This document shows positions 5,881 through 56,261 of a stretch of 64,000 nt of DNA, piece after piece. The translations under genes were made by a program, and so were the position numbers. A model generated the notes under the pieces. It saw nothing but the letters and a program-made list of their open reading frames with translations, had not been told where the DNA came from and did not search any database. Positions within the stretch are counted from its first letter, which is position 1. Each line of letters starts with the position of its first letter. The stretch is from Minisyncoccota bacterium (GTDB taxonomy: Bacteria > Patescibacteriota > Minisyncoccia > Phycocordibacterales > UBA918): the NCBI GenBank assembly GCA_021734905.1, contig JAIPIB010000001.1:2230-66229 (forward strand). Direction: 5' to 3'.

Positions 5881-5987
5881 TGCCAGCGTATTTTTGAATG
5901 GTATACTGTGCTACCTAATTATTAACAATGCGGGGTAAGGCGAGTTGGAAACGAGACTCTCTGAACTCATAATAAAAACTAAGCAGC

Positions 5988-7022
5988 ATGTCGATAACAA
6001 AGAATGCACCACCAGTTGATATCAATAAGCGACGAGCCATAAATGGTGAGGACGCGGATGTTATTCAGCTCTATCCAATGAAGCACGCGTGGGCTTGGGA
6101 GTATTATAATGCCGCAAATGCCAATCACTGGCTTCCGACTGAAATTAGCATGCAGCTTGATATTGAGCAGTGGAAATCAGCCACTGTATTAACGACAGAT
6201 GAACGTCACGCATTTGAAACTGTTCTTGGTTTCTTTACTACAGCCGACTCAATTGCAGCAAACAATATAACTATTGCCAACTACCGGCATATCACAAGTC
6301 CAGAAATTCGAATGTATCTATTACGCCAGGCATATGAAGAGGCCATTCACACCCATGCATATCAATATATCGTTGAGTCACTAGCAATGGATGAGTCAAA
6401 GATTTTCAATATGTATCGTGAACGAGACGCAATCTATAATAAAGCGAGTTTTATTTTGTCATTTAATGAGGGTATTTTTGACCCAACGTTTAAAACAGGG
6501 ACATTTGAAAATGACCAAAAATATCTTGAGAATCTCTGTGTCTTCTCACTCATTCTTGAGGGGATATTCTTTTACAGTTCGTTTGCGGTGATGTTTGGTT
6601 TTCAACGGCAGCATAAATTAACTGGTTCTGCAGAACAAATTCAATACATCATGCGCGATGAATCGATGCACCTTAACTTTGGATGTCAGCTTATTAACAC
6701 AATCAGGGAGGAACAACCAGAACTTTGGACGAAAGAATTTCAAGATAAAATCGTCGGATACATCAGAGAAGCAGCTCGTCTTGAATATACCTACGCACAA
6801 GAAGTATTTCCTGCAGGAATATTTGGTATGAATGCTGCTGGATTTAAACAGTATATTGAACATATTGCTGATCGTCGGTTGGAGCGAGTGGGACTTCCAG
6901 AACAATTTGGTGTCACAAACCCGTTCCCATGGATGAGTGAAGCAATCGACCTTCCGAAAGAAAAAAACTTCTTTGAAACAAGGGTGACTGAGTACAAAAC
7001 AGGTGGTGCACTCAATTGGTGA
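5988..7022 (+). CDS. nrdB: ribonucleoside-diphosphate reductase class I beta subunit (di-iron/tyrosyl radical R2)
   Basis: R2 iron-ligand motifs EEAIHTHAY and DESMHLNFG, ferritin-like helix pattern; immediately downstream of nrdA. Confidence 0.9.
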   Translation: MSITKNAPPVDINKRRAINGEDADVIQLYPMKHAWAWEYYNAANANHWLPTEISMQLDIEQWKSATVLTTDERHAFETVLGFFTTADSIAANNITIANYRHITSPEIRMYLLRQAYEEAIHTHAYQYIVESLAMDESKIFNMYRERDAIYNKASFILSFNEGIFDPTFKTGTFENDQKYLENLCVFSLILEGIFFYSSFAVMFGFQRQHKLTGSAEQIQYIMRDESMHLNFGCQLINTIREEQPELWTKEFQDKIVGYIREAARLEYTYAQEVFPAGIFGMNAAGFKQYIEHIADRRLERVGLPEQFGVTNPFPWMSEAIDLPKEKNFFETRVTEYKTGGALNW

Positions 7023-7040
7023 CCAAGAATCAACGAGCAG

Positions 7041-7107
7041 CGCGGCTATGATTATTGAGTCTGTCGCAAAATTCTATTCATAATGAATTTTGTGACGGAC
7101 AGAATCC
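7041..7107 (+). repeat. REP-like element, variant with TATTCATAATG loop (stem gtcgcaaaattc / gaattttgtgac with a G-U pair on + strand)
   Basis: Hairpin with conserved loop shared with copies at 34211-34279, 47800-47866, 19905-19950, 37390-37425; 5' box gctatgattattgag resembles the agcgactatattttctgag box of other copies. Confidence 0.6.
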
Positions 7108-7154
7108 AACTTATGCTGGGCTCCACATGGTGTAGAGAATAGCCCATTATTCTA

Positions 7155-7213
7155 GCGATTATGTCGAATTTATGTCCAGATTTGCTCTTTCCTAGAGCTA
7201 ATTGCTGGACGAC
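7155..7213 (+). repeat. REP-like element, B-variant (gcgattatgtcgaatttatgtcc..hairpin..attgctggacgacc)
   Basis: Shares 5' box GCGAyTATnnnGAATTTnTGTCC and 3' box CGCTGGAC with copies at 9181, 9589, 19801, 56161, 56957. Confidence 0.6.
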
Positions 7214-7365
7214 CAGAAAATAAAGATAGATGTAGATATTTTTGAGGACGAAGCGAAGCATCACGAGTTGTTGTATAGCGAAAATAAGGAACCGAAGGGT
7301 TTAAAAACTGAATACAATCAAACTCTTGAAAGCAAATCCGACAGTGGTTTGATATACTTATAATA

Positions 7366-8298
7366 ATGCGCTTATTAATTCTTATAGGCATACTTATCGC
7401 TACTCTCTTCGGGAGCGGTTTTTGGTATGCTTATATTGATATGGACTGTAAGCTGCCAGTTAAATACAAAATTGGAAATATTGATGAGCGATTTGGTACT
7501 GATGTTAATGAATTAAAAAAGATTGTCGCAAAAGCAGAGACGGTGTGGGAGTCTGCGTTGCAGACAGAATTGTTTGCGTATGATGAAAATGCCTCATTAT
7601 CTATAAATCTCGTTTTTGATGAACGACAAGAGGCCTCTGATAGAGAGGCAGAGTTAAGAGATGATCTACAGATAAAAGAAGGAATGAGTGAAAGTGTTGC
7701 AGAGCAATATACTGAATTGGTTGGTGAATATAGAGCCCTTAAGAAGTCATATGAATTACGTGTTGGAGAATATGAAGAAAAACTTAGTAAACATAATATC
7801 CAGGTTACTGATTGGAATAATAAAGGAGGAGCCCCACAAGATGTTGTCGACAAGTTAGGTGAAGTGCAGAAAGCACTTACGGAGGAACAAAAATCAATTG
7901 AGGGACTTGCAAAGAAGCTTAATCAGTTTGTTGTGCAACTTAATGCAATTGGAGTGAGGGGGAATTCGCTTATTACTGACTACAATGCTGTGGTCAATAA
8001 ATATAATGAACATTTCAAAGAGGTCCAAGAATTTACACAGGGCGATTACACTGGGAAAGCGATCGATGTGTATCAGTTTAATTCTGAAGATGAATTGACG
8101 ATTGTGCTCGCTCATGAATTCGGGCACGCCCTCGCACTTGGACATGTACAAAACGAAAAATCAATCATGTACTTTCAGATGAACGCTCAGGAAGTGTTGG
8201 AAGGGTTGAGTGCTGAGGATATGAACGAATTTACACAAGTGTGTAGTCAAAGAACTCTTGTTCAGCAGATTGCCGTGTGGTTAAAAAGCATTTTGTAA
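7366..8298 (+). CDS. matrixin-like zinc metalloprotease (peptidase M10 family), N-terminal TM anchor
   Basis: HEFGHALALGH = HExxHxxGxxH zinc-binding consensus followed by Met-turn region (SIMYF); N-terminal hydrophobic helix. Confidence 0.7.
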   Translation: MRLLILIGILIATLFGSGFWYAYIDMDCKLPVKYKIGNIDERFGTDVNELKKIVAKAETVWESALQTELFAYDENASLSINLVFDERQEASDREAELRDDLQIKEGMSESVAEQYTELVGEYRALKKSYELRVGEYEEKLSKHNIQVTDWNNKGGAPQDVVDKLGEVQKALTEEQKSIEGLAKKLNQFVVQLNAIGVRGNSLITDYNAVVNKYNEHFKEVQEFTQGDYTGKAIDVYQFNSEDELTIVLAHEFGHALALGHVQNEKSIMYFQMNAQEVLEGLSAEDMNEFTQVCSQRTLVQQIAVWLKSIL

Positions 8299-8370
8299 GG
8301 TCTTTGCTCTTTTGAATGGGATAGAGTACGATTATTCTCAAGTTAATAATATATAAATTATCAAAAAAGT

Positions 8371-9165
8371 ATGTTCCAAGAATCATCAATAAGGAAGGTC
8401 GGAGTTGCTATTGGAGGGATGATCATCATTGCTCTTGCTGCGTATACGTATTACACAATCAAACAGTCGCAGTACATGTTTGGTGGGCCAGTTACGATTT
8501 CTGTCGTTGGAAAGGGTGAAGTGTTCGCAACTCCAGATATTGCAACATTTAGTTTTTCTGTTGTTGCAAAAGAAGATGAGGCAGTAACTGCGCAAAATAA
8601 GGTATCCGAGACATCAGATACAATCTTGGCATATCTTGAGGAAAATGGTGTTGAAGAGAAAGATGTTAAAACAGAGTATTACAATCTCACACCTCGGTAT
8701 GAATATCCTGAAACAGTCTGTACCCAGTGGGGTTGTCCACCGCGAAGCGGAGAACCAAAACTTATCGGATATGAAGTAATGCAAAATATTTCTGTAAAAA
8801 TTCGAGATACGAGCAAGGCAGGTGAAATCATTTCAGCTGTAGGAAGTCGTGGAGCGCTTAATGTGAGCGGACTTTCATTCACTATTGATGACGAGGAGAT
8901 TCTTGTTGCTGAGGCGCGAGAAAAGGCGATTAATGATGCACAAGAAAAGGGTCGCGTTCTTGCTAAGAGTCTTAATGCACATATCGTTAGAATGACTGGA
9001 TATTGGGAAGAGCAAGGAGGATATCCAATGCAGTACGGTATTGGTGGTGGGGTTAATATGATGAAAGCAGAGGACTCGTCAGAAATGATGGTTCGACCAG
9101 CTGCTTTGCCATCAGGTGAAAATAAGATTTCAGCACAAGTTAACATTTCGTACGAAATTAAATGA
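8371..9165 (+). CDS. SIMPL/DUF541 domain periplasmic protein (BP26/Omp28-like)
   Basis: N-terminal TM/signal, sequence pattern typical of SIMPL domain proteins; assignment from overall similarity recalled, not computed. Confidence 0.55.
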   Translation: MFQESSIRKVGVAIGGMIIIALAAYTYYTIKQSQYMFGGPVTISVVGKGEVFATPDIATFSFSVVAKEDEAVTAQNKVSETSDTILAYLEENGVEEKDVKTEYYNLTPRYEYPETVCTQWGCPPRSGEPKLIGYEVMQNISVKIRDTSKAGEIISAVGSRGALNVSGLSFTIDDEEILVAEAREKAINDAQEKGRVLAKSLNAHIVRMTGYWEEQGGYPMQYGIGGGVNMMKAEDSSEMMVRPAALPSGENKISAQVNISYEIK

Positions 9166-9180
9166 GATAATGAGCCCTGG

Positions 9181-9238
9181 CGACATATATCGAATTTATG
9201 TCCCGATTTTTTCTTCCCTAGAGAAAATCGCTGGACTA
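9181..9238 (+). repeat. REP-like element, B-variant
   Basis: cgacatatatcgaatttatgtcccgattttttcttccctagagaaaatcgctggactag; stem cgattttttct/agagaaaatcg. Confidence 0.6.
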
Positions 9239-9259
9239 GTAGTCGTGCAGAAGTAACAT

Positions 9260-9295
9260 AAAAACCCCCAAGACCATAAGGCTCGGGGGTTTTTG
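9260..9295 (+). terminator. intrinsic terminator after SIMPL gene (ccccc..ggggg stem + T-run)
   Basis: aaaaacccccaagaccataaggctcgggggttttt seen in sequence. Confidence 0.6.
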
Positions 9296-9305
9296 ATGAG
9301 TGATA

Positions 9306-9333
9306 TTGACATCTGCTATTTAAGGCGTAATAT
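9306..9333 (+). promoter_or_regulatory. sigma70-like promoter upstream of secE (TTGACA-16-TAATAT)
   Basis: ttgaca at 9306-9311, 16-nt spacer, taatat at 9328-9333; followed by small hairpin cgccc-gtg-gggcg + T-run at 9344-9361. Confidence 0.5.
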
Positions 9334-9386
9334 TATATTAAATCGCCCGTGGGGCGTTTTAATTTTGCTAACCTAATTTATATACC

Positions 9387-9569
9387 ATGAGTCAGTTTAT
9401 TAATTACCTTAAGGATACTGTTTCGGAGCTTAAACACGTGTCATGGCCAACAAACAAACAGACAGTTGTGTATACAGCACTCGTTATAGGTATCTCTATC
9501 GCCGTGTCAGTATTTGTCGGACTTTTTGACTTCGGTTTTTCTAAAGGTCTCGACTGGTTTGTTAAGTGA
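9387..9569 (+). CDS. secE: preprotein translocase subunit SecE
   Basis: 60-aa single-TM protein immediately upstream of nusG-rplK, canonical synteny; KDTVSELKHVSWPT..TALVIGISIAVSVFVGLFDF. Confidence 0.75.
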   Translation: MSQFINYLKDTVSELKHVSWPTNKQTVVYTALVIGISIAVSVFVGLFDFGFSKGLDWFVK

Positions 9570-9588
9570 AATAAAGAAACGAGCTTAA

Positions 9589-9650
9589 GCGACTATTCTG
9601 AATTTCCGTCCCGATTTCTTTATTCATAAAAGAAATCGCTGGACGTATCG
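9589..9650 (+). repeat. REP-like element, B-variant with ATTCATAA loop
   Basis: gcgactattctgaatttccgtcccgatttctttattcataaaagaaatcgctggacgtatcg; perfect stem cgatttcttt/aaagaaatcg. Confidence 0.65.
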
Positions 9651-9784
9651 ATTCTATGTAAAATTATTAAATAGAGGATAGCGGGCAGATAGGGCTGGTG
9701 CGTCGTAAAAATGCATTAGGAATAGCATTTTTCGACAGCCAACTTTTTCTAAACTCGTTACACTCGTAAGAAAAACTAAGCAGC

Positions 9785-10330
9785 ATGGCTAAACAACATA
9801 CAGACGGAGAACGACATTGGTATGCAATTCATACATATTCTGGTTATGAAAATGCAGTTGCACGTAACCTACGACAACGTATCGAATCACTTGGAATGGA
9901 AGATAGAATTTTTGAAGTAGTTGTACCAACCGAAAAGAAAATACGCGTGAAGGGAGGGAAGAGAATTACTGAAGAGGAAAGGATTTATCCTGGATACGTG
10001 CTCGTCGATATGGTTGTGACTGATGATTCATGGTATGTCGTACGTAACACTCCGCGCGTTACCGGATTCGTGGGTAGTGGAACACAGCCAGTCCCTCTTC
10101 GAAAAGAAGAACTTGATACCCTCATGAATCGCATGAAAGATGATGCTCCTAAACATCATATAGACCTTTCGATTGATGATGCCATTATGATTGTAGATGG
10201 ACCATTCAAAGAACTCGAAGGTAAGGTAGGTGAAATTGACTCCGAACGAGGAAAGGTGAAGGTACTCGTCTCGATGTTCGGTAGAGAGACTCCTGTTGAG
10301 CTTGATTTCTTGCAAATCAGAAAAATATAA
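9785..10330 (+). CDS. nusG: transcription termination/antitermination factor NusG
   Basis: NGN domain start (HWYAIHTYSGYENAV), C-terminal KOW region; secE-nusG-rplK synteny. Confidence 0.9.
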   Translation: MAKQHTDGERHWYAIHTYSGYENAVARNLRQRIESLGMEDRIFEVVVPTEKKIRVKGGKRITEEERIYPGYVLVDMVVTDDSWYVVRNTPRVTGFVGSGTQPVPLRKEELDTLMNRMKDDAPKHHIDLSIDDAIMIVDGPFKELEGKVGEIDSERGKVKVLVSMFGRETPVELDFLQIRKI

Positions 10331-18103: not shown

Positions 18104-19783
18104 ATGGAACCTTTAATAAGAAAAGCAATTGAAAACGCTCTTGAAGAACTCGGCATTACTGGTGTCCTTTTTGCTGTGGAACACCCCGCAGAAATTACTC
18201 ATGGTGATTACTCAACGAATGTTGCGATGGTGTGCGCTAAAAAGTTGGGGAAGAGCCCTCACGAAATTGCGGAGCAATTTCGTGAGGTACTTGAGGGAAA
18301 AATTTCTCATGTTGATTCAGTAAGTATTGCGGGCTCAGGGTTTATTAATTTTCACCTCACGCGTGATTTTTTCTCCGAAAAAATCACGGACGTGAATACA
18401 AATCCAGAAACATTTGGAAAAAATGATTCACTCAAAGGTGAAAATATTATTTTTGAATATACGAGTCCAAATCTCTTTAAACCACTTCACATTGGTAATC
18501 TTGTCGGGAACATCGTGGGTGAATCCATCTCACGACTTTTTGAATACGGTGGAGCAACACTTAATCGTGTTAATTATCCTTCTGATATTGGACTCACTGT
18601 TGCAAAAGGTGTTTGGGGACTCCAGAAGACAGGTGGAGATCCAAAGGATATTAATCAAATTGGCGATGCATACCGTGTAGGAAATGATGCATATGAACAT
18701 GATCCAGAGGCCAAGGAAGAAATTGAGTTTGTAAACCGATCTCTGTATCTTAACGACAATGAAGACCTTACAAATCTTCGTGCACAGGGAATAGAAACAT
18801 CACGTGCCCGACTTGCAGATTTATGTCGAATGCTCGGAACAACATTTGATACAGAAATTTTTGAAAGTGAGGTTAGTGCACTTGGTACGAAGATTGTTCG
18901 TGAAAATATTGGTAAGGTCTTTGAGGAAAGTAATGGGGCAGTCATATTTCGAGGTGAAAAATATGGTTTTCATACTCGTGTCTTTCTCAACTCGCAAGGA
19001 CTTCCAACATATGAAGCAAAGGATGTTGGAAACTTTGCAAAGAAGCAGGAAAAATACCCAGATTGGACACAAACTTTTGTAGTAACAGGTGGAGAACAAC
19101 GTGAATATTTTAAGGTGCTCATTGCCGCTCTCCGTGAGGTATTTCCTGATATAAGTCACAAAAAAATTGAGCACATTCCAACAGGTTTTCTTACGCTCAC
19201 TACAGGAAAAATGTCATCTCGAAAAGGAAACGTCCTTACAGGGGAGTCGTTGATTGCTGAGGTTAAGGATGAGGTAGAAGCTCGCGCGAAAGAAAGTAGG
19301 GCAGAGAACGTTACGGAACTTACCGAGCAAGTTTCCATCGGTGCGCTTAAATATCAGATTCTCCGTCAATCAGTCGGGTCCGATATTGTCTTTGATAAAG
19401 AACGAGCACTATCACTTGAGGGAGACTCTGGCCCGTACCTCATGTACACGCACGCGCGCATTTCCTCTATAGAAGAGAAGGCACATAAGATAGGGATGAA
19501 TTCTGATACAAAGGTTGCCCCAAGTGTTCCGTATGAAATTGAGAAGCTTATCTATCAGTTCCCTGAAGTCATCGTAAAAGCACAAACAGAACGAGCACCT
19601 CATTATGTGGTTACGTACCTTACTGCACTCGCAAGTTCATTTAATTCATTCTACGCACATGAAAAAATTATTGATAATGAAGATATGTACGCACCATACA
19701 AATTAGCGGTCGCGTCATCAGTAAAAAATATTCTCAGAAACGGACTCTGGGTACTTGGAATGAAAGCTCCCGAGAAAATGTGA
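18104..19783 (+). CDS. argS: arginine--tRNA ligase
   Basis: Class I HIGH-type motif SPNLFKPLHIGNLVGN and KMSSRKG (KMSK), length and N-terminal add-on domain fit ArgS. Confidence 0.8.
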   Translation: MEPLIRKAIENALEELGITGVLFAVEHPAEITHGDYSTNVAMVCAKKLGKSPHEIAEQFREVLEGKISHVDSVSIAGSGFINFHLTRDFFSEKITDVNTNPETFGKNDSLKGENIIFEYTSPNLFKPLHIGNLVGNIVGESISRLFEYGGATLNRVNYPSDIGLTVAKGVWGLQKTGGDPKDINQIGDAYRVGNDAYEHDPEAKEEIEFVNRSLYLNDNEDLTNLRAQGIETSRARLADLCRMLGTTFDTEIFESEVSALGTKIVRENIGKVFEESNGAVIFRGEKYGFHTRVFLNSQGLPTYEAKDVGNFAKKQEKYPDWTQTFVVTGGEQREYFKVLIAALREVFPDISHKKIEHIPTGFLTLTTGKMSSRKGNVLTGESLIAEVKDEVEARAKESRAENVTELTEQVSIGALKYQILRQSVGSDIVFDKERALSLEGDSGPYLMYTHARISSIEEKAHKIGMNSDTKVAPSVPYEIEKLIYQFPEVIVKAQTERAPHYVVTYLTALASSFNSFYAHEKIIDNEDMYAPYKLAVASSVKNILRNGLWVLGMKAPEKM

Positions 19784-19800
19784 AATGAGCAAAGGAATAA

Positions 19801-19858
19801 AGTGACTATTGCGAATTTCTGTCTCAGTTTTCTATTCCTGATGAAAACTGCTAGACGC
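19801..19858 (+). repeat. REP-like element, B-variant
   Basis: gtgactattgcgaatttctgtctcagttttctattcctgatgaaaactgctagacg; stem cagttttc/gaaaactg. Confidence 0.6.
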
Positions 19859-19904
19859 TGTTATATTTAAGATAATCTCGGTCGCTTGCAGCGACAATGC
19901 TGAA

Positions 19905-19950
19905 CTTCCTTCCTGATTTTCTATTCATAATGGAAATCACTGGAAGTTTC
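19905..19950 (+). repeat. REP-like hairpin with TATTCATAATG loop
   Basis: gaacttccttcctgattttc-tattcataatg-gaaatcactggaagtttcc. Confidence 0.55.
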
Positions 19951-19972
19951 CAACTACCTCAGTCTCTGCACA

Positions 19973-20030
19973 TAAGCGACTATTGCGAATTTTTATCGTT
20001 CATCATTAATAGTGCGTATTACCGGAAATC
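19973..20030 (+). repeat. REP-like element, partial (5' box only)
   Basis: gcgactattgcgaatttttatcgttcatcattaatagtgcg. Confidence 0.45.
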
Positions 20031-20481: not shown

Positions 20482-23400
20482 ATGCTTATTATTATGTCTG
20501 ATATACATAACCATATGGATACAAATAAAGAGGATGAGAAGAGTGATGTTGCGCGTCGTGAAGAGGATGTTCTGGCGTTTTGGAACGAGCGCGATATTTT
20601 TAATAAAAGTCTAGAAAAGGAATCACCGAATGGTGATTTTGTGTTTTATGACGGTCCACCGTTTGCGACGGGGACTCCCCACTACGGGCATATTCTTGCG
20701 GGGACAATCAAAGATGCTATTCCAAGGTTTTGGACAATGAATGGATACCGCGTGAAGCGGAAGTGGGGTTGGGACTGCCATGGTCTTCCCCTTGAAAATA
20801 TTATTGAGAAGAGGCTTGGACTTGCAACAAAGAGGGATATTGAAGAACTTGGCGTAAAGAAATTTAACGAGGCTGCACGGGATGCAGTGCTTGAGTATGA
20901 GGATGACTGGAAAGTGGTCGTGCCACGAATGGGACGGTGGGCAGACATGGAACATGACTACAAGACAATGGATTCAACATATACCGAATCAGTATGGTGG
21001 GTTTTTTCTGAACTTAACCGTAAGGGGCTTGTGTATGGAGGATTTAAGTCAATGCACCTCTGTCCACGTTGTGGTACTACACTCTCAAACTTTGAGGTGA
21101 ATCAGGGATACAAAGATATCAAGGATATTGCTGTAACGGTAGAACTTCCACTTCTTGATGAGGAAGGAAAAATCACTGACACATCTCTTCTTGTGTGGAC
21201 GACGACTCCGTGGACACTTCCAGGGAACATGGCTGCAGCAGTGCACAATGATATTGAGTACGTAGTAGTTGAAAAAAAAGATGAAGGTGAGGGAGAATTA
21301 GTGCGCTTCATTGTTGCAAAAGGCAGACTCGAAGCAATTTTCGGAGGTCAGGAATACACCATCGTCGAGGAGATAAAAGGAAGTGAGCTTGTGGGAAAAT
21401 CATATCAACCTCCTTTCGACTATTTTCAGAAACAAGAATTTCAACATAAAGAAAAGGCATGGAAAATTTACCACGCAGACTATGTTGAGCTTGGTGAGGA
21501 TGGAACAGGCGCGGTACATATTGCTCCTGCGTATGGAGAAGAGGATATGGAGCTCGCAAAAAAAGAAGGATTTCCTATCATGCACCATGTTGATGAGTTG
21601 GGACACTTCAAAGATTTTGTAACTGATTTTAAGGGGCAGTTGGTTAAGCCAAAGGATGATGACGATGCTGGAGTAACTCACCTTGAGGCCGATATAGAGA
21701 TTGTTAAGGCCTTGAAAGTATCCGGAAAATTGTTTCAAAAGGAAAATATTACGCACTCGTATCCACACTGTTGGCGATGTGACACTCCGCTTATTAACTA
21801 CGCAACAACATCATGGTTTGTTCGTGTAACTGATCTCAGAGATCGTCTTGTCGAAGAGAACAGTAAGGTATGCTGGGTTCCTGAACACGTCGGGAGAGCA
21901 CGATTTGGAAAATGGCTTGAGGGTGCTCGTGACTGGGCAATATCACGACAACGCTATTGGGGAGCACCACTGCCAATTTGGAAGAATCAAAAAACTGGTG
22001 AAGCAAAAATTATTGGTTCACTCAGTGACCTCCAGCAGTATGTTCGAAAAACTGGGAATTCGTATTTCCTCACACGTCATGGAGAATCAGAATTTAATAC
22101 GAAGTGGATTTTGAACGGGACCACTGGTGTTGAAAACGGACTTACTGAAAAAGGGAAAGAACAAGTTGACACTGCTTCAGCAATTCTTAAAGATGAAAAG
22201 ATAGACCTTATCTACCACTCTCCACTTGAAAGAACAACCGAGACAGCGCTAAAAATTGCACAAACACTCGGACTTGGAGAGGACTCACTTATTGCAGATG
22301 ATCGTTTGAAAGAGATGCAATTTGGTGAATTTGAGGGAAAAGAAGTCAATGATTATCTAGCCTTCTTTGGGAGTGGCTACAATCGACTTATTATGCATCC
22401 TGAGGGCGGTGAGTCATGGAGTGATGTGAAACGACGCGTTGGAGCATTTCTTTATGAAATAGATTCAAAACACACGGGGAAGCGTATTCTCATTGTTTCT
22501 CACAATGGTACGCTTCAAATGCTTCAGGCAGTTGCACAAGGCCTTGAACATGAGAGACTAGGCCATCTCGTTGGAGAAGATAGACTCGATATACAGAACG
22601 CAGAAGTTCGAGCGTTTTCATTTGTTCCAATGCCACATAACGACGATTACGTTCTCGATTTTCACCGGCCATACATTGATGAGATTGGACTCGTTGATAC
22701 AGATGGAGAAATTATGAAACGCATCCCCGACGTCTTTGATTGTTGGTTTGAGTCTGGCTCTATGCCGTATGCACAAAACCACTACCCATTTGAAAATAAA
22801 GATGTTTTTAACGCAGAGCAAGGGCGAGGGTTTCCGGCACAATTTATCGCGGAAGGCCTCGACCAAACCCGAGGATGGTTTTACTCACTTATTGTTTTAG
22901 GAGTGTCACTCTTCGGTAAGTCGCCCTACGAAAACGTTATTGTGAATGGCCTTGTTCTTGCCGAAGACGGAAAGAAGATGAGTAAACGTTTACAGAATTA
23001 CCCAGATCCGATGGAACTTGCTGATCGGGTTGGCGCCGATGCGATGCGGTACTACCTTCTTTCTTCGTCGATTGTTCGTGGGGAAGATCTTAATTTCTCA
23101 GAAAAAGAAGCACTTGAATTGCAGAGAAAAAATATTGGACGCCTTCACAACGTACTCGCGATGTATCAAATGTATGCGGACGAAGGTATCGCGCCAAGTA
23201 ACAGCTCAGAGAACCCACTTGACCGGTGGATACTTTCTCGAACAAATGAAATGCTTCGTGACGTTACAGTAGGATATAAGAATTACGAGCTCGACAAAGC
23301 AACACGTCCAATCGCAGACTGCATTGAGGATCTCTCAGTCTGGTATTTGCGCCGTTCTCGTGAGCGCTTGAAGGGGGGTGATAGCAATGATAAAAAACAC

Positions 23401-24048
23401 GCACTGGGGACACTTCGCTATGTGTTACAGAGCTTGTCTCTAGTGATGGCGCCGGTTATGCCTTTCTACGCAGAACACCTTTTTCAACGTGTTCGTGAAG
23501 CTAATGATGCAGAAAGTGTCCACTTAATGAATTGGCCTAGCGTAGGAGCTGTAGATGCAGACATTCTTTCAGGGATGAGTGAAGTGAGGCGTATTGTTAC
23601 AGAGGCTCTTGAACTGAGAACAAAGGCAAATATGAAAGTTCGTCAGCCACTCGCAAAACTCACCTTTGGTTCTGATGTTCCAAGCATGAAAGATGATTTA
23701 TTTTTCTTGTTAGTGGATGAGGTAAATGTGAAAGTTGTGGAAAAAATAAACGATAAAGAAAAAACAGCAGTATGGCTCGACACGACTATTACCGAAGAGC
23801 TTAAGCGTGAAGGTGACGTCCGAGAGCTTATGCGAAGTATTCAGGATTCCAGAAAGGTGAAAGGACTGAGTCCACAAGACAGGATAGTGCTCCGTGTTTC
23901 AGAAGGGACAAAACAACTTATTTCTGGATTCGAAATAGAAATAATGTCTGTCGTTGGAGCTGTAGATATACGCACTGATTCGAATGTGTCTGGCGGGGAA
24001 GTCATCATTGATTCTGTTATCTATAACTTTGCAATAGAAATGCAATAA
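20482..24048 (+). CDS. ileS: isoleucine--tRNA ligase, type 2 (eukaryote-like), with inserted histidine-phosphatase (PGM-type) domain
   Basis: FYDGPPFATGTPHYGHIL (type-2 IleS HIGH), GWDCHGLPLE, DVFDCWFESGSMPYAQ, KMSKRLQNYPDP; internal ~190 aa FLTRHGESEFN...ILIVSHNGTL matches phosphoglycerate-mutase-type histidine phosphatase. Confidence 0.9.
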   Translation: MLIIMSDIHNHMDTNKEDEKSDVARREEDVLAFWNERDIFNKSLEKESPNGDFVFYDGPPFATGTPHYGHILAGTIKDAIPRFWTMNGYRVKRKWGWDCHGLPLENIIEKRLGLATKRDIEELGVKKFNEAARDAVLEYEDDWKVVVPRMGRWADMEHDYKTMDSTYTESVWWVFSELNRKGLVYGGFKSMHLCPRCGTTLSNFEVNQGYKDIKDIAVTVELPLLDEEGKITDTSLLVWTTTPWTLPGNMAAAVHNDIEYVVVEKKDEGEGELVRFIVAKGRLEAIFGGQEYTIVEEIKGSELVGKSYQPPFDYFQKQEFQHKEKAWKIYHADYVELGEDGTGAVHIAPAYGEEDMELAKKEGFPIMHHVDELGHFKDFVTDFKGQLVKPKDDDDAGVTHLEADIEIVKALKVSGKLFQKENITHSYPHCWRCDTPLINYATTSWFVRVTDLRDRLVEENSKVCWVPEHVGRARFGKWLEGARDWAISRQRYWGAPLPIWKNQKTGEAKIIGSLSDLQQYVRKTGNSYFLTRHGESEFNTKWILNGTTGVENGLTEKGKEQVDTASAILKDEKIDLIYHSPLERTTETALKIAQTLGLGEDSLIADDRLKEMQFGEFEGKEVNDYLAFFGSGYNRLIMHPEGGESWSDVKRRVGAFLYEIDSKHTGKRILIVSHNGTLQMLQAVAQGLEHERLGHLVGEDRLDIQNAEVRAFSFVPMPHNDDYVLDFHRPYIDEIGLVDTDGEIMKRIPDVFDCWFESGSMPYAQNHYPFENKDVFNAEQGRGFPAQFIAEGLDQTRGWFYSLIVLGVSLFGKSPYENVIVNGLVLAEDGKKMSKRLQNYPDPMELADRVGADAMRYYLLSSSIVRGEDLNFSEKEALELQRKNIGRLHNVLAMYQMYADEGIAPSNSSENPLDRWILSRTNEMLRDVTVGYKNYELDKATRPIADCIEDLSVWYLRRSRERLKGGDSNDKKHALGTLRYVLQSLSLVMAPVMPFYAEHLFQRVREANDAESVHLMNWPSVGAVDADILSGMSEVRRIVTEALELRTKANMKVRQPLAKLTFGSDVPSMKDDLFFLLVDEVNVKVVEKINDKEKTAVWLDTTITEELKREGDVRELMRSIQDSRKVKGLSPQDRIVLRVSEGTKQLISGFEIEIMSVVGAVDIRTDSNVSGGEVIIDSVIYNFAIEMQ

Positions 24049-29725: not shown

Positions 29726-29755
29726 AAAAATAGTACGATCGATCGTACTATTTTT
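29726..29755. promoter_or_regulatory. 30-bp perfect palindrome AAAAATAGTACGATC|GATCGTACTATTTTT (overlaps 3' end of TrpR-like gene; also hairpin+T-run after metG)
   Basis: Perfect dyad seen directly; second copy at 30169-30194. Confidence 0.6.
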
Positions 29756-30168: not shown

Positions 30169-30194
30169 AAATAGTACGATCGATCGTACTATTT
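30169..30194. promoter_or_regulatory. 26-bp perfect palindrome AAATAGTACGATCGATCGTACTATTT, 5 bp upstream of TrpR-like start and 60 bp upstream of divergent tatD (candidate operator)
   Basis: Perfect dyad identical in core to 29726-29755. Confidence 0.6.
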
Positions 30195-30254
30195 TACGAA
30201 CATGCAGAGTGGATATTTTGTGTTGTCTGCGAAAGTGCTATATTGATGTAATTC

Positions 30255-33362: not shown

Positions 33363-33495
33363 TATTGTATAGTTGAAGTAGTGGAACATTACAAAAGATA
33401 GATGAGATGAGTGTCGGAGCTTAGTTTGTCAAGAAAAAGTATTTCAGGATAACAGAGTTTTTCTCACTCGTTTCACTCGTAATAAAAACATAAGT

Positions 33496-33994: not shown

Positions 33995-34195
33995 ATGGTG
34001 GAAAAGAAAACAAAAACAACGAATGTTGAGCATTATGATTACAAGGATGTTGTACGACTCCTTGCCCATATGAATCCACATTCACGTATGTTCAATCGAA
34101 GACGAACAGGGCACACAGCACATGAGCAACGAACGTTTGCGCAAGCAGTGAAGCGAGCACGTTTCATGGCACTTGTGCCGTACGTTTCAGAATGA
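33995..34195 (+). CDS. rpsR: 30S ribosomal protein S18
   Basis: ..RRRTGHTAHEQRTFAQAVKRARFMALVPYV canonical S18; not followed by rplI. Confidence 0.85.
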   Translation: MVEKKTKTTNVEHYDYKDVVRLLAHMNPHSRMFNRRRTGHTAHEQRTFAQAVKRARFMALVPYVSE

Positions 34196-34210
34196 CCAGA
34201 AAATAAAGAG

Positions 34211-34279
34211 CATAGCGACTATATTTTCTGAGTCTGTCATAAAATTCTATTCATTATGAATTTTAGGACGAACAGACTC
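34211..34279 (+). repeat. REP-like element (5' box agcgactatattttctgag + hairpin with TATTCATTATG loop)
   Basis: outer stem gagtctgt/acagactc, inner aaaattc/gaatttt; near-identical architecture to 47800-47866. Confidence 0.65.
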
Positions 34280-34317
34280 CAACGTGCACAAAGTTTAGCG
34301 TGGTGCGGAGATGGAAT

Positions 34318-37360: not shown

Positions 37361-37562
37361 TACGAACGCAGTGAGTTAGAAAATCTTAGCTGTCGGAAAA
37401 TACTATTCATAATGTATTTTAACGACGAACGAAGTCAAACTACCACTTCACTTGTTCTTGATAATACACTGATAATTATACAGTACGAACGCAGTGAGTT
37501 AGAAAATCTTAGCTGTCGGAAAATACTATTCATAATGTATTTTAACGACGAACGAAGTCAAA
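37361..37562. repeat. two ~80-bp direct repeats (37361-37440, 37484-37562) in recA upstream region; each contains TATTCATAATG hairpin and a segment homologous to rplL leader
   Basis: units identical over ~79 nt; reverse complement reads ..cagctaagattttctaactcactgcgttcgtaacaaaatctaagcATG (recA start), cf. 48518-48575. Confidence 0.75.
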
Positions 37563-47612: not shown

Positions 47613-47799
47613 AAAAATTCTGGTATAGTGTTCGTCATACAGACTCATGACAGCTGGTCGTATATCGAAAAGGATATACTATAATGAACCGTTTGGTTTG
47701 CCAGCCGAAGTCCCTTCTCTTTTAAGGTTGGGGGTCGAAACTCAAGTCTGTACCACGCATTTGCTTGGTACGTCTGTGTCCAAAAAATAAGAAGCGGAA

Positions 47800-47866
47800 G
47801 CGACTATATTTTTTGAGACCGTCTTGAAATTCTATTTATAATGAATTTCAAGACGTACATACTTTA
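47800..47866 (+). repeat. REP-like element (5' box agcgactatattttttgag + perfect 12-bp hairpin gtcttgaaattc/gaatttcaagac, loop TATTTATAAT) upstream of rplJ
   Basis: seen in sequence. Confidence 0.65.
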
Positions 47867-47894
47867 TTTTTCAAAGAAGTATAAATTAAAAAGC

Positions 47895-48383: not shown

Positions 48384-48449
48384 TTAATAATCTATTGGGT
48401 GTAGTGGTTTAGAAAAGTCCTGGGCAAGAAACAGAGCAAATGAAGTGAT

Positions 48450-48493
48450 GGTCGATTTTTCTTCTTTGGGGAAGAAAAATCGACAGACTCAGA
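48450..48493. repeat. REP-like hairpin (perfect 14-bp stem gtcgatttttcttc/gaagaaaaatcgac) between rplJ and rplL
   Basis: stem sequence related to B-variant stems (cgattt..ttct). Confidence 0.55.
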
Positions 48494-48572
48494 AATTATA
48501 GTCATTTCATTCCTTAATTTCTGGCCACAGCTAAGATTTTCTAATTCGGTGCCCTCATAACAAAATCTAAAC

Positions 48573-49001
48573 ATGACAGATGAAACAACAGTTGCTGCTG
48601 CAGAAGCGGTAGTCGAAGAAGTCGTAGAGGTTCCTGCAGAATTTAAAAAGATTGTAGAAGAGATTGAAAAAATGACTGTTCTTGAGCTTCACTCACTCGT
48701 GAAGGTTCTTGAAAAGAAGTTTGGTGTATCAGCACAAGCCGTTGCGGTTGCTGGACCAGCTGCAGGAGGAGGCGATGCTGCAGAAGAGCAGAGTACATTC
48801 ACTGTAGAACTTACTGAGGCTGGAGCACAGAAGATTGCTGTGATTAAGGCTGTTAAAGAAGTTCTTGGTCTTGGTCTCAAGGAGGCAAAAGACATGGTAG
48901 ATGCAGCACCTTCAGTTGTTAAGGAAGGTCTTAAGAAGGAAGATGCAGATGCTCTCAAGGCAAAGCTTGAAGAAGCTGGAGCAAAAGTTACCTTGAAATA
49001 A
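48573..49001 (+). CDS. rplL: 50S ribosomal protein L7/L12
   Basis: canonical L12 N-terminal dimerisation, Ala/Gly hinge, C-terminal domain ..EAGAKVTLK. Confidence 0.9.
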
Positions 49002-52465: not shown

Positions 52466-53025
52466 ATTCCTTACAGGAATGTTAAGGGTGTATGGTGGAT
52501 GCCTAGGCTTCAAGAAGCGATGAAGGACGTGATATGGCTGCGATAAGCGTGGGGGAGATGCCAAATAATCGTTATATCCCACGATTTCCGAATGAGGAAA
52601 CTCACCTGCTTACGGCAGGTACCCTTGAATGAGGGAGCGTACCCAGGGAAGTGAAACATCACAGTACCTGGAGGAAAAGAAAGCAAAAAACGGGACTTTC
52701 TTTCTGACTTTTGAACAGCTTGCTGTTCTCCATTGAAGTCAGGAAGAAGGTTCTCGCGATTCCCTTAGTAGCGGCGAGCGAAAAGGGTAGAGCCCAAACC
52801 ATTCGTATTTATATGGATGGGGTTGTAGGGCAGTAGTGTCATTTAGTTGAGAAGAGTTACAAAATGTTGTCATAATAAAACGCGTTGGGAAGCGCGACCC
52901 AAGAAGGTAATAGTCCTGTATATGAAATTTCAACAACTCTTTTGCTACTGTTCCTGAGTAGTTCGGGACATGAATAGCCCGAATGAATCTGGGAGGACTA
53001 ACTCCTAAGGCTAAATATTCTTGAA

Positions 53026-53071
<46 letters not shown>

Positions 53072-53639
53072 GGAGAGGGGAGTGAAATAGATCTGAAACC
53101 ATACATCTACAAGGAGTCGAAGCCCTGCGGGGCGACGGCGTGCCTATTGAAGAATGAGCCGGCGAGTGTATCTTTATTCTTTGTCTAAGTGGTAAACCCA
53201 CGGAGGCGTAGTGAAAGCGAGCGTGAATAGCGCGAATATAGAGTAAGGATACGACCCGAAGCGGGATGAGCTTGCCATGTGCAGGGTGAAGCGAAGGTAA
53301 AACTTCGTGGAGGCCCGAACCGGTTGGCCGTTCAAAACCATCGGATGACATGTGGTAGGGAGTGAAAAGCTAATCGAATTCCGTAATAGCTGGTTCTCTC
53401 CGAAACAGCTTTAGGGTTGGCGTCGTGTGTTCCTCCTGGGGGTAGAGCTCTGGAAGGTCTAAATAGGGAGAAATCTCGTTAGACCTATCAAACTACGAAT
53501 ACCAGGTAGTCACAGCACGGCAGTTAGACTACGGGGGAGAAGCTCCGTTGGTCGAAAGGGAAACAGCCCAGATCGCCAGTTAAGGTCCCAAAATATATGC
53601 TCAGTGCAACTTGAGGAGGTGAGGATTCATAAACAGTCA

Positions 53640-53671
<32 letters not shown>

Positions 53672-54514
53672 GAAAGCGTAACAGCTCACTGATCGAGAGT
53701 CCTTGCGCCGAAGATGATCGGGGCTCAAGCATATTACCGAAACTGCGGATGTCACTTTTCTTCGGAAAAGTGGCGTGGTAGGAGAGCGTTCTGTTCTGCA
53801 ATGAAGCCAAGGTGTAAACCACGGTGGAGCGTACAGAAGTGAGAATGCCGGCACAAGTAACCGCAAGACGGGTGAGAACCCCGTCCGCCGAAATACCGAG
53901 GTTTCCTTCGCTATGCTGATCAGCGAAGGGTTAGTCGGTCCTAAGCCGATCCCGAATGGGGGAGGCGATGGATAGCAGGTTAATATTCCTGCACACTGTT
54001 GCGTTGCGATGGAGGGACGGAGGGTTGTACCCAAAGCATCTTATTGGATTGGTGCTGGAACTATGAGGAGGTGTGGTAGGCAAATCCGCCACACAATACT
54101 CCGAGTAGGGTCTGAACGTAAGGCTTCGGCCGAGCGAATGAGGGGAGCACGCTTCCTAGAAAAACTTCTAAGCATAAACGTAACGGTTCCGTACCGCAAA
54201 CCGACACAGGTGGTAGGGTCGAGAAGACCAAGGCGAACGAGTGAGGGGTCCTTAAGGAACTCGGCAAAAAAGCGGCCGTAACTTCGGGATAAGGCCTGCC
54301 TTTGCCCCTTCGGGGGTTAAAGGCCGCAGCGAAAGATTTCCTGGCAACTGTTTAACAAAAACACAGCTCCCTGCGAACACGTAAGTGGATGTATAGGGGG
54401 TGACGCCTGACCAATGCCGGAAGGTTAAATATGGGGGGTCTTATGTATTTATATGTAAGGCTGGACTATATAAGCCCCGGTCAATGTCAGCGATAACTAT
54501 AATCGTTCTAAGGT

Positions 54515-54712
54515 TCAGCAATTTTTCTTCGGAAAAATTGCTGATAGGACTGGAACGATTATGGGTTAAACATATAACGCCGAACAAGCTACCTTGCATC
54601 CAGAAATGTATGCATAGTCCAAATTGCAACCAACAAGAGACCAAATGTTGCACATCTTAACTATCGAAAGATAAAAGATGAAGATAGAGTCCTTCTGCAA
54701 TAGGAATAGAAG
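54515..54712 (+). other. 198-nt intervening sequence in 23S domain IV between AAGGU and AGCG (E. coli ~L1917-1923 region); degenerate group-I-like mini-intron?
   Basis: Exon sequence contiguous in E. coli; insert preceded by U, ends in G; contains gatgaagatagagtcc nearly identical to S-element segment of the downstream intron; starts with perfect UUCG-type hairpin cagcaattttt-cttcgg-aaaaattgctg. Confidence 0.55.
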
Positions 54713-55279
54713 AGCGCAATTCCTTGTCGGGTAAGTTCCGACGTGCACGAAAGGCGTAATGACTGGGAAACTGTCTCAAGGACCTGCTCGGTGAAAATAC
54801 AATGGGGGTGAAGATGCCCCCTACCTGCAGTTAGACGAAAAGACCCCAGGAGCTTTACTGTAGCTTCGTATTGGGGCTGTTGAATTAATGCGTAGCATAG
54901 AAGGGAGACTTTGAAGCGAGCTTTCGGGTTTCGTGGAGTCGCCAGTGAAATACCTTTCTTTAATTTGGCAGTTCCTAACCTCTTAGAAAAAATCTAAGAG
55001 AGACAGTGCGTGGCAGGCAGTTTTAGTGGGGCGCTACCCTCCTAAAAAGTAACGGAGGGGTCTCAAGGTTGGCTAGGCGCGAATGGAAACCGTGCCGATA
55101 GTGTAATGGCATAAGCCAGCTTGACTGTAAGGCGTCAGTGCCGAACAGATGCGAAAGCAGAGCATAGTGAACCGACGGTACGCTTTAGACGCGGCCGGAG
55201 ATTATCTGACAAAAGTTACCCTGGGGATAACAGGCTAGTCGTGCCCAAGCGTCCATAGCGACGGCACGGTTCGGCACCT

Positions 55280-55646
55280 TAACTTATTTATGGTATTTCA
55301 CTCAGCAATGGGTGTTTATATCAAGTTATAAATACATCGGGGTGCCTAGAGTAGCAATACTCTATAAAAATAAATTGGCTATATGCTGGAACTCCTGAGT
55401 CAAAATTAAGCATACAAGGCCCAAACAGTAATTTGAAAAAATAAGCTGTGTGGCTTGAAAACATTGTATGTTCAGGACAATCAGCAGGGAAGACTTCTAA
55501 GTTATTTAAAATAATATGAAGAACCCTCAGAGACTACACGCCAATCTCCAACTCTAAGTAGAGCTGGATGAAGATATAGTCCGATCCTCGTAGTAATACG
55601 AGTGTATAGTAAAAGTAGATAGAATTTTTACTATACAAAACGACAG
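55280..55646 (+). other. group I self-splicing intron (367 nt, no ORF) in 23S domain V at E. coli L2500-equivalent site
   Basis: Interrupts GGCACCU|CGAUGUCGGCUC; 5' exon ends in U, intron ends in G; candidate IGS gggtgt (55310-55315) pairs with exon gcaccu giving U-G at splice site; conserved Q aatcagcagg (55479-55488), R cctcagagactacacg (55525-55540), S aagatatagtcc (55571-55582). Confidence 0.85.
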
Positions 55647-55676
55647 CGATGTCGGCTCAACTTATCCTGGGGCTGG

Positions 55677-55712
<36 letters not shown>

Positions 55713-55717
55713 AAGTT

Positions 55718-55755
<38 letters not shown>

Positions 55756-56160
55756 CTCTATCTACTGCAGGCGTCGATTCTTGAAGAGATTTGTCCCTAG
55801 TACGAGAGGACCGGGATGAACTGACCTCTGGTCTATCTGCTGTCACGCCAGTGGCACCGCAGAGTAGCTATGTTGGGAATGGATAACTGCTGAAAGCATC
55901 TAAGCAGGAAGCCAACTCTAAGATTAGGAATCATTAAGTCCCCTGAGAGATGATCAGGTTGATAGGCACTAGGTGTAAGCGCAGCAATGTGTGGAGCCGA
56001 GGTGTACTAATTAGACGTAATTCCTGTAGGGAATGCTGTACATCGCCCCAAATGAACAAAATTAACGCACTGTTTTTAATTTTGGACATTTAGGAGTGAA
56101 AAGCTATACAATTTTTTGGAGTATTGTTTTATGTTTGTCGTCGTTTTAGAATATGTGATT

Positions 56161-56232
56161 GAACAAACGAGCGTAGCGACTATTGTGAAATTATGTCCCG
56201 ATTTCTTCTAACAGAGAAGTAATCGCTGGACC
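56161..56232 (+). repeat. REP-like element, B-variant, in 23S-tRNA spacer
   Basis: gagcgtagcgactattgtgaaattatgtcccgatttcttctaacagagaagtaatcgctggacc; ~66/66 identical to 56957-57030 copy. Confidence 0.7.
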
Positions 56233-56261
56233 TTAGGATTCATGAGGTTATGTACGCTCAA

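Follow-up and report, generated by a model that had tools for sequence, protein, structure and literature searches.

A two-hairpin interspersed repeat with a strand-specific, covarying fold in Paceibacteria

A covarying two-hairpin fold confined to one strand

The DNA analyzed here (the window) is a 64,000-nucleotide (nt) stretch of contig JAIPIB010000001.1 from a Minisyncoccota bacterium (GenBank assembly GCA_021734905.1, positions 2,230 to 66,229 of the forward strand). Its G+C content is approximately 41%, its genes lie mostly on the + strand, and they include those for ribonucleotide reductase subunits, SecE, NusG, ribosomal protein L11, thymidylate-cycle enzymes, and several aminoacyl-tRNA synthetases (aaRSs). 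The homologues and syntenic contigs of the window all derive from Patescibacteria/Paceibacteria metagenome-assembled genomes. An affiliation with Coxiella or Simkania, considered on account of the group I intron in the 23S rRNA gene, was rejected, as gene content and homologues point to Patescibacteria. Patescibacteria account for a large share of bacterial diversity and are almost entirely uncultured, and to our knowledge hardly any non-coding RNAs or repeat families have been described from them. An earlier, sequence-only reading of the window had noticed a dispersed family of hairpins, each preceded by a conserved "5' box". Alignment of the copies indicates that this family is an asymmetric element of approximately 100 nt composed of two unlike hairpins, P1 and P2, and that it recurs in other genomes.

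When the copies were lined up, approximately 25 conserved bases became apparent 5' of the box, and the box itself proved to be half of a hairpin rather than a separate element preceding one. P1 has the consensus UUAAAU-GA-NNAAA-S-GA-GC-(GNA or GNRA loop)-GC-GA-C-UAUUN'N'-GA-AUUU, and forms a rod of approximately 17 stacked pairs with two tandem G.A motifs, at which GA/GA is found in 49 and 54 of 57 copies, respectively. Its loop is mostly GUA, GUAA, GGAA, or GCAA, with the GNA triloop dominant, and its 5' strand often holds the stop codon of the upstream gene. The NN of this 5' strand covaries with an NN inside the box, and the box is therefore the apical loop and 3' strand of P1. A linker of one nucleotide separates P1 from P2, which equals the hairpin recognized previously and reads GUCC-xxAUUU...AAAUxx-CU-GGAC, with a foot of the form (A/C)(U/C)GUCC. 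The CU bulge of P2 is kept in all 57 copies, while its tip is hypervariable, occurs in flavours common to several genomes, and accommodates insertions of 56-81 nt, which form additional helices. P2 is followed by a weakly conserved, A-rich tail, G(R)AC-NRA-NUC-NAA. Unpaired nucleotides of the element are conserved across distant genomes. Two main types were distinguished: compared to type B, type A has a longer, regular P1 that lacks the outer G.A motif, and its P2 loop is UAUUCAUAAUG. The element is also modular, in that P1 can be combined with the standard form of P2, with variants of it, or with a different 3' module.

The fold is supported by extensive covariation. Across 57 copies from 37 genomes, 98.7% of pair cells hold standard pairs and in 12 of 25 pairs both partners have changed, with a covariation score of 0.351 compared to 0.122 in shuffles, none of 500 of which reached the observed value. 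Sliding the partners by one to three columns lowered pairing to 29-51%, and RNAalifold, run independently, predicted the same two-hairpin fold. The NN/N'N' positions of P1 covary perfectly (GC/GC, AG/CU, GU/AC, AA/UU, AC/GU, AU/AU, GA/UC, and UG/CA), and the apical 2-bp helix changes from GC/CG to AU/UA in several copies. These data bear out the earlier observation that the stems differ between copies yet stay complementary. The same is true of its remark that G-U pairs occur on one strand only: the copies contain 64 G.U compared to 6 A.C pairs, and therefore the element's own strand alone folds. This asymmetry rules out both a double-stranded binding site for a protein and a cruciform of symmetric shape. 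Compensatory covariation above shuffle controls and strand asymmetry, by which selection on a structured RNA is recognized, were both observed. Additionally, most window copies fold better than their dinucleotide shuffles (z -1.6 to -4.9).

Other ways of reading the conserved positions were considered and rejected. An outer helix enclosing P1 and P2 is not indicated, as the complementarity of the flanks equals that of the control (5.6 compared to 5.8), and no pseudoknot was evident in the P1/P2 fold. A switch in which the 3' strand of P1 pairs alternatively with the 3' strand of P2 was dismissed because P2 columns covary while P1 stays GA. For a leader peptide or small open reading frame (ORF; AUG UCC CGA UUU... 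and AUGAGCAAACGAGCGUAG), neither start nor stop is conserved, and coding leaves the NN/N'N' covariation unexplained. Embedding of a stop codon is not obligatory either, with an ORF ending in the element for only approximately 40% of copies. Read from the consensus, the conserved boxes of the sense strand are unlike -35/-10 hexamers at promoter spacing. A promoter scan of the window gave a single sense-strand overlap, a weak 9/12 match (TTGAGT-18-CATAAT, 7055-7084) in a type A copy that is within shuffle expectation, and the antisense promoter-like TGGACA-18-TACGCT is weak as well.

Copies in the window and neighbouring features

To locate copies, we employed a covariance model, R1, built from 57 sequences, of which 53 come from other genomes; the four from the window are type B copies (9157, 9563, 56150, and 56948), whose high scores are thus partly by construction. 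R1 matched 12 window sites at E<0.01, 10 on the + strand and 2 on the - strand, comprising five full type B copies, one 5'-truncated copy, one P2-only copy, three type A copies, and the two minus-strand copies. The 5' box pattern gave 11 matches in the window compared to 3.9 expected, a number reached by none of 100 shuffles, and repeat finding sorted the window copies into families D1-D5. Related sequence was present at every place listed by the sequence-only reading, so that its central claim of a dispersed family stands, and the covariance model that it had proposed as a check recovered most of these places. An additional 6 kb of flank contained no further copy.

Five + strand copies begin at the stop of a + strand gene, namely nrdB, a SIMPL-family gene, the genes for SecE and ArgRS, and an S18-like ORF; copies thus begin at or overlap the stop codon, and do not follow it by 15-20 nt as had been thought. 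The type A copy at 7015-7109 (+; 33.7 bits, E 5e-5; fold z -4.74) lies directly 3' of the nrdB-like gene, whose stop (TGA 7020-7022) falls within the base of P1. In this copy, 7024-7032 pairs with 7049-7057 around an apical ACGAGC-AGC-GCGGC (7033-7048) to form P1, and 7059-7074 pairs with 7085-7100 across the loop UAUUCAUAAU to form P2. Its P1 is fully compensated in the orthologous type A copy of L063 (L-numbers denote loci or contigs of other genomes compared with the window). A type B copy lacking a recognizable P1 5' strand follows at 7130-7223 (+; 41 bits; z -2.67); its match begins at UAGCGAU, and its P2 (7174-7210) has the loop UUUCCUA. The full type B copy at 9153-9249 (+; 83.9 bits) overlaps the end of the SIMPL-family gene, the stop of which (TGA 9163-9165) is the UGA of AAAUGA in P1, and a canonical terminator-like hairpin lies 3' of it at approximately 9262-9295. 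Two further full type B copies lie at the stops of SecE (TGA 9567-9569; copy at 9562-9657, +, 93 bits) and ArgRS (TGA 19781-19783; copy at 19776-19869, +, 78 bits), the latter with the apical pairs GAAU...GUGAC.

The 19776 copy is followed by a P2-only remnant with loop UAUUCAUAAUG at 19896-19958 (+; 24.2 bits, E 0.005; z -3.78), the second unit in a small tandem cluster. A fragment at 19973-20000 (+) consists of the P1 loop and 3' strand (AAGCGACUAUUGCGAAUUU) without P2, has a fold z of 0.00, and is not matched by R1. The list of copies made earlier thus holds at most places, while its entries at 19973-20030, 19905-19950, and 7155-7213 correspond to a P1 3'-half fragment, the P2-only remnant (24 bits), and the copy without a P1 5' strand, respectively. 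The type A copy at 34188-34282 (+; 33.3 bits) begins at the stop (TGA 34193-34195) of a 66-aa ORF (33995-34195) that reads like ribosomal protein S18 and is flanked by Pfam-supported genes for S6 and SSB. Another type A copy lies 5' of the L10 gene at 47772-47867 (+; 29.5 bits; z -3.83), where the base of P1 is GUC/GAC, swapped relative to the GAC/GUC of the other type A copies.

Two copies are on the minus strand, contrary to the earlier statement that every copy is in + orientation. One, a type A-like copy between the L10 and L7/L12 genes at 48438-48532 (31.6 bits; z -4.95), had been listed as a + strand copy at 48450-48493, and the other, 3' of the 5S rRNA gene at 57568-57661 (63.5 bits), had been missed. 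The apical pairs of the latter, GAGU...ACGAC, represent a compensated change, and its arrangement, a 5S gene followed by an antisense copy, recurs in L019. The rRNA operon also holds two full type B copies that flank a tRNA-like gene, one between this gene and the 23S gene (56150-56244, +, 90.8 bits) and one between it and the 5S gene (56948-57042, +, 89.3 bits; family D1), and these are 97% identical to each other. Upstream of recA, two identical 79-nt direct repeats (37361-37562, +; family D4; fold z -1.78) each contain a hairpin (37390 and 37513) that resembles a type A P2. These hairpins had been counted with the family, and the R1 score of 9.8 bits (E 5) gives no significant support for their membership.

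Several other features of the window were recorded. A hairpin motif, CYUACAG-RAR-CUGUNCA, forms an inverted pair (57547-57563, -, and 57692-57708, +) around the 57568-57661 copy, and is found beside or inside copies elsewhere (L032:1675-1691, L038:2452-2468, L059:1782-1798, and L065:18238-18254); the window contains two exact matches and one with two mismatches (3 compared to 0.21 expected). Within the rRNA operon, the 23S gene (52472-56030) is interrupted by a group I intron (55328-55603, 92.8 bits), and the 5S gene lies 1.1 kb downstream of the 23S gene, beyond the tRNA-like gene. The latter is an Rfam tRNA call of 118 nt (56566-56683, 37.7 bits) to which ARAGORN gave no counterpart, with an apparent insertion of approximately 45 nt that is too short for group I introns, which have been reported in tRNAs of Patescibacteria (PMC13011429). 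A degenerate, 5S-like pseudo-copy (57330-57470; ccgaacacg...aagcttgcttgcatcgat...cttcagggggagag) lies past the real 5S gene and its terminator.

Elsewhere, the start codons of nrdB, NusG, and L7/L12 each form the end of a conserved motif of approximately 35 nt (ACUC..U..ACUC.UAA.AAAAACUAAGCAGC-AUG; 5956-5990, 9753-9787, and 48544-48578), the shorter, 24-nt 5' part of which occurs a few nt upstream of the SSB start (33466-33489). The motif contains a -10-like CATAAT/CGTAAG (TTGGAA-17-CATAAT at 5945-5973) and may be a candidate promoter whose leader is very short. A perfect 27-nt palindromic repeat, AAATAGTACGATCGATCGTACTATTTT (29728-29754 and 30169-30195), flanks a 138-aa minus-strand ORF without a Pfam match, and the gene at 20482-24048 encodes an IleRS-like class I aaRS of 1188 aa into which a histidine-phosphatase domain (His_Phos_1, residues 529-696) is inserted. 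Finally, a 53-nt direct repeat (61486-61538 and 61611-61663, 98% identical) lies in the divergent spacer between glycosyltransferase and sugar-transferase genes, the same spacer in which the relative L010 holds a copy of the element.

Distribution, genomic context, and turnover

A 23-nt pattern, GCGACTATTNNGAAWTTNNGTCC, was searched in 185,579 species genomes and found at 61 loci, 60 of which are in 37 Patescibacteria-type assemblies; the window's own genome was not among the matches, and the one match in Trichormus was judged to be due to chance. At syntenic loci, proteins are 35-80% identical to those of the window, while the core of the element is almost invariant. Some element-bearing assemblies are labelled Acidimicrobiales (L006 and L026), Patiriisocius (L010, L014, L018, and L052), or Azotimanducaceae (L029). 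The genes of the L010 and L029 contigs are syntenic with the window, whereas no synteny with the window was seen for the Acidimicrobiales-labelled bin. These labels are probably binning errors and the contigs mis-binned Paceibacteria. Viral contigs gave no match to the element, and a viral origin was rejected on this ground.

The contexts of 72 copies outside the window were surveyed. In 67 cases with an upstream neighbour to compare, this gene was co-oriented with the element in 47 and opposed in 20 (p 0.001), and between co-directional genes 30 copies are sense and 8 antisense (p 0.0005). The bias towards a co-oriented upstream gene that the window had suggested is therefore present across genomes, but is not strict, as approximately 30% of copies are antisense. 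Antisense and sense copies are equally intact, with a mean of 82.1 bits each (p 0.79), and some antisense copies sit between two terminators. Orientation agrees with the upstream gene in 47/67 cases and with GC skew in 49/83, although the 8-kb skew estimates are noisy. Approximately 27 copies overlap the upstream stop codon. Placement is not restricted to the 3' ends of genes as had been proposed, since copies also occur in 5' leaders, in divergent spacers (seven copies, with ten in convergent spacers), and between cistrons, including atpD and the next gene, FtsA-FtsZ, DnaB-RecR, L10-L12, and SecE-NusG. The flanking genes are unrelated housekeeping genes (for RNase J-like protein, DnaB, AtpD, FtsA/FtsZ, S1, L3, trigger factor, release factor, Pth, and RecR, as well as TyrRS/TrpRS-type and ThrRS-type synthetases). 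In most places, the position of the element suggests that its sense strand is transcribed.

Canonical hairpin-plus-U terminators were found 3' of the element in the window (approximately 9262-9295) and in L060, L014, L048, L013, and L063, indicating that in these places the element lies within the 3' untranslated region and is not itself the terminator. A terminator within 170 nt was found for only 13 of 78 copies. No U-tract follows P2, where the tail beginning G(R)AC is found instead, in keeping with the earlier remark that these hairpins are not classical terminators. The L013 copy sits between two terminators, with a promoter-like TTGCAA-16-TAAAAT upstream. The copies of L041 and L054 are placed after the terminator of a weak T-box-like leader and before a class II aaRS ORF (ThrRS-type in L041). 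These divergent leaders (L041:6405-6610, -, and L054 upstream of 2718) have a GGUGGAACCGCG box and a terminator; the L041 leader matches the T-box model at 24.6 bits (E 0.002) compared to an Rfam threshold of 93 bits, and the L054 leader appears T-box-like by our own reading.

No gene was seen recurrently beside the copies. The window ORFs that were scanned included no transposase, reverse transcriptase, or integrase, and no RAYT (the transposase of repetitive extragenic palindromic [REP] elements) was found either among these ORFs, scanned with Pfam, or among 20 flanking ORFs at other loci. This extends the earlier observation that the window holds no RAYT or IS200 gene.

Copy number and position differ sharply between relatives. 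The 64-kb window has 12 copies, while relatives with an nrdB 87-95% identical have 0-1 per 21 kb; over 21 kb of syntenic DNA, the window has five copies and the close relatives 0-1. The SecE-NusG spacer spans 215 nt in the window, where it is made up of the element, an A+T hairpin, and a promoter-like motif, compared to 9-15 nt in four relatives (L063, L064, L065, and L069). At the 3' end of nrdB, the window has a type A and a truncated type B copy, L063 a type A copy, L029 a type B copy, and L067 and L069 plain terminators. Presence/absence polymorphism between related genomes was observed at these two sites, at FtsA-FtsZ, and at other sites; in L038 the element lies inside a 310-nt insertion that L020 lacks. 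Orthologous sites often hold different subtypes, as for atpD in L022 and L051, or different orientations, as in the L10-L7/L12 region, where the copy is sense in L034 and L057 (between the genes) and in L049 (just upstream of L7/L12) but antisense in the window. In addition, some copies are truncated, some are duplicated locally in tandem, and some consist of P1 alone joined to another 3' module. Comparisons by exact protein matches, made in search of empty sites at the strain level, returned the same strain only. Of the behaviour of a MITE (a miniature transposable element with inverted repeats), which the sequence-only reading had named as grounds for refutation, terminal inverted repeats and a general target duplication are lacking, and orientation is biased 47:20.

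Possible roles and relation to known systems

With moderate confidence, we read the element as an interspersed repeat on which selection acts in the single-stranded form, most likely as RNA, and which would act as a transcript-borne two-hairpin module affecting the flanking RNA. The data above show the fold with its covariation and strand specificity, as well as the distribution, contexts, and turnover of the element; the RNA nature of the folded strand, as opposed to single-stranded DNA (ssDNA), a protein partner, and an effect on transcripts are what we infer. The element would be carried within host transcripts as an autonomous folding module and would be gained, lost, and replaced in transcribed spacers, with its shape kept because the folded single strand would be what is recognized. 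Tandem G.A motifs are typical of protein-binding RNA, and it is possible that P1 serves as a recognition platform, its tandem-G.A rod being bound by a conserved protein or RNase, with P2 as a tolerant stem. The presence of the module in a transcript could then affect the processing or stability of the flanking RNA segments.

Several points weigh against this proposal. The strand asymmetry fits RNA and ssDNA alike, and the GNA triloop (the GC-GNA-GC mini-hairpin), like tandem G.A motifs, is known to be stable in ssDNA too. A purely cis-acting mRNA element would not predict approximately 30% antisense copies that score like sense copies, and an effect on mRNA fate is proposed by analogy with the enterobacterial repetitive intergenic consensus (ERIC) and REP. 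No mobilizing gene was found in the window or recurrently beside copies, the direct repeats flanking copies average 4.95 in length compared to 4.46 in controls, with an 11-nt repeat only in L031, and the unrelated 5' and 3' ends form no terminal inverted repeats. Finally, most copies outside the window were ascertained by a pattern in which 18 bases of P1, as well as the P2 base, are fixed.

We also consider it possible, albeit doubtful, that the element represents an undescribed functional RNA class of Paceibacteria, a module of approximately 100 nt that would recruit a conserved protein through its double tandem-G.A rod, and would either be released as an abundant small ribonucleoprotein (RNP) or punctuate cistrons, leaders, tRNA, and rRNA. 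Among bacteria, such a class would correspond to tRNA punctuation or to the co-transcribed small RNAs (sRNAs) of archaea.

A non-autonomous DNA element, moved as folded ssDNA by an HUH-type enzyme in the 'peel and paste' manner of IS200/IS605 or in that of REP-RAYT, with the hairpins as enzyme sites and transcription incidental, is likewise a doubtful candidate. It would account for the strand-specific fold without terminal inverted repeats or regular target duplication, for the sharp differences in copy number among close relatives, for antisense copies as intact as sense copies, and for truncated copies that start at the P1 loop, and the established stability of the mini-hairpin and tandem G.A motifs in DNA is consistent with it. 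However, Y1, HUH, and RAYT genes were found neither in the window nor as recurrent neighbours of copies, orientation tracks the upstream gene (47:20) more than GC skew, and the two hairpins are unlike each other, whereas the ends of IS200/IS605 elements carry similar hairpins. Moreover, REP and MITE families are usually conserved over far smaller distances, REP normally within a species or genus, and not across loci whose proteins are 35-80% identical.

The element might instead consist of small stable RNA genes of approximately 100 nt, excised or transcribed from their own promoters, that form an RNP on the tandem-G.A rod and act in trans like archaeal C/D-box sRNAs. The conservation of unpaired nucleotides across distant genomes, the copies in rRNA operon spacers by tRNA and 5S, the intact antisense copies, the L013 copy with its two terminators and promoter-like sequence, and the P2 tips whose flavours are common to several genomes would all fit. 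We nevertheless regard this as unlikely, given that close relatives lack most copies, so that there is no fixed gene set, that most copies leave no room for a promoter or terminator, that the variable region is base-paired and offers no obvious guide, and that C/D boxes and the 3-nt bulge of a K-turn are absent.

The location of copies exactly between functional RNA segments (CDS/CDS, leader/CDS, and 23S/tRNA/5S), and the many invariant nucleotides in a small fold, might suggest that the element punctuates polycistronic and rRNA precursors, either by cleaving itself as a ribozyme or as the site of a dedicated RNase. We consider this very unlikely: no Rfam ribozyme matched the four copies over 6900-9800 even at E<=10, the G.A motifs and one bulge account for nearly all conserved unpaired bases with no evident pseudoknot, and antisense and P1-only copies exist. 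Partial resemblances to hammerhead and hairpin ribozymes, selenocysteine insertion sequences (SECIS), and the sarcin-ricin or L10/L11 rRNA sites (as mimicry) were rejected, as key invariant positions do not fit and Rfam gave nothing. That the element is an unusual, factor-dependent or U-tract-less terminator is hardly credible despite its frequent location just past stop codons and the canonical terminators that replace it at the nrdB 3' end of L067 and L069, since it has no U-tract, canonical terminators follow it in the window and in five other loci, and copies are found within operons, between 23S and 5S, and in 5' leaders where a terminator precedes them.

Whichever role applies, the element is short and easy to model, its sequence is kept across genomes whose proteins are about half identical, and it occupies part of the few intergenic bases left in minimal genomes. 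If the RNA is functional, it points to an RNA-protein system on many housekeeping transcripts, the rRNA operon included. Were it no more than a selfish repeat, it would still be a useful marker for following how genomes change in a lineage that is considered poor in mobile DNA, and one would have to ask what moves it. In practical terms, gene callers can misplace gene ends where the element supplies or overlaps stop codons, and the element can flag mis-binned Paceibacteria contigs.

Comparison with Rfam 15 gave no family that overlaps a copy, either at gathering score in the whole window or at E<=10 over 6900-9800, where four copies lie, and none was found in 18 further loci; the families covered include hammerhead, twister, pistol, hatchet, HEARO, IS605-orfB, and the L10 leader. 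A literature search found no description of the element, and it is probably a new, apparently undescribed structured repeat of RNA type.

Archaeal box C/D sRNAs resemble the element in having tandem G.A motifs at two places, near the base and by the terminal loop, and in their many dispersed copies, which often overlap ORF 3' ends and are co-transcribed, as the position of the element suggests for it as well. In contrast, the element has no RUGAUGA/CUGA boxes or 3-nt bulge, and its segments between the G.A motifs pair with each other, whereas those of box C/D sRNAs are free 12-nt guides; we know of no fibrillarin or Nop partner in these bacteria. Integron attC sites share the strand-specific fold, a conserved bulge, a hypervariable terminal structure, and placement right after ORFs, but the consensus of the element contains no R/L boxes (RYYYAAC/GTTRRRY), there is no integrase or cassette array, and its neighbours are syntenic housekeeping genes. 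TIGR-Tas systems of the candidate phyla radiation were rejected as a match, since they form tandem arrays with different repeats (PMC12045711), unlike the dispersed single units described here.

Closer likenesses are found among interspersed structured repeats. ERIC sequences, also termed IRU, are intergenic repeats of approximately 127 bp in Enterobacterales and Vibrio. Like the element, they lie in transcribed intergenic spacers in both orientations, vary strongly in copy number among relatives, take internal insertions at fixed places, show unusually wide taxonomic conservation, and fold as RNA within mRNAs, as the element probably does. However, an ERIC sequence forms a single long, imperfect palindrome that has terminal inverted repeats as well as a TA duplication and folds on either strand, while the element is asymmetric, with two different hairpins, folds on one strand, and has neither terminal inverted repeats nor a regular duplication. 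The sequence-only reading had suggested a REP/BIME-like element, which is a reasonable analogy in behaviour: the REP/BIME elements of E. coli and Pseudomonas are also short extragenic hairpins near stop codons, present in many copies, co-transcribed with the upstream gene (for our element, as judged from position), and with conserved stem mismatches. The analogy fails in structure and range. REP is a single palindrome of 20-40 nt with a GTAG/CGTC tag that occurs in alternating clusters, is tied to RAYT, and is restricted to a species or genus, whereas the element has approximately 100 nt and two hairpins, lacks such a tag at the foot of P2, contains GTAG by chance inside the P1 loop when this is GUA but not when it is GUAA, GGAA, or GCAA, and is conserved across many Paceibacteria. 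BOX of Streptococcus pneumoniae (boxA-boxB-boxC) is likewise modular and intergenic, with a predicted stable RNA fold and no known transposase, but it has no sequence similarity to the element and is confined to one genus, while the element spans many Paceibacteria species.

Confinement to transcribed spacers, a sense bias that is not exclusive, turnover, fragments and modular variants, and the lack of an associated gene therefore suggest, by analogy, that the element fits the class of interspersed structured repeats that includes ERIC, REP/BIME, BOX, and Correia. What sets it apart from this class is its asymmetric, strand-specific fold, its two tandem G.A motifs, and its far wider sequence conservation.

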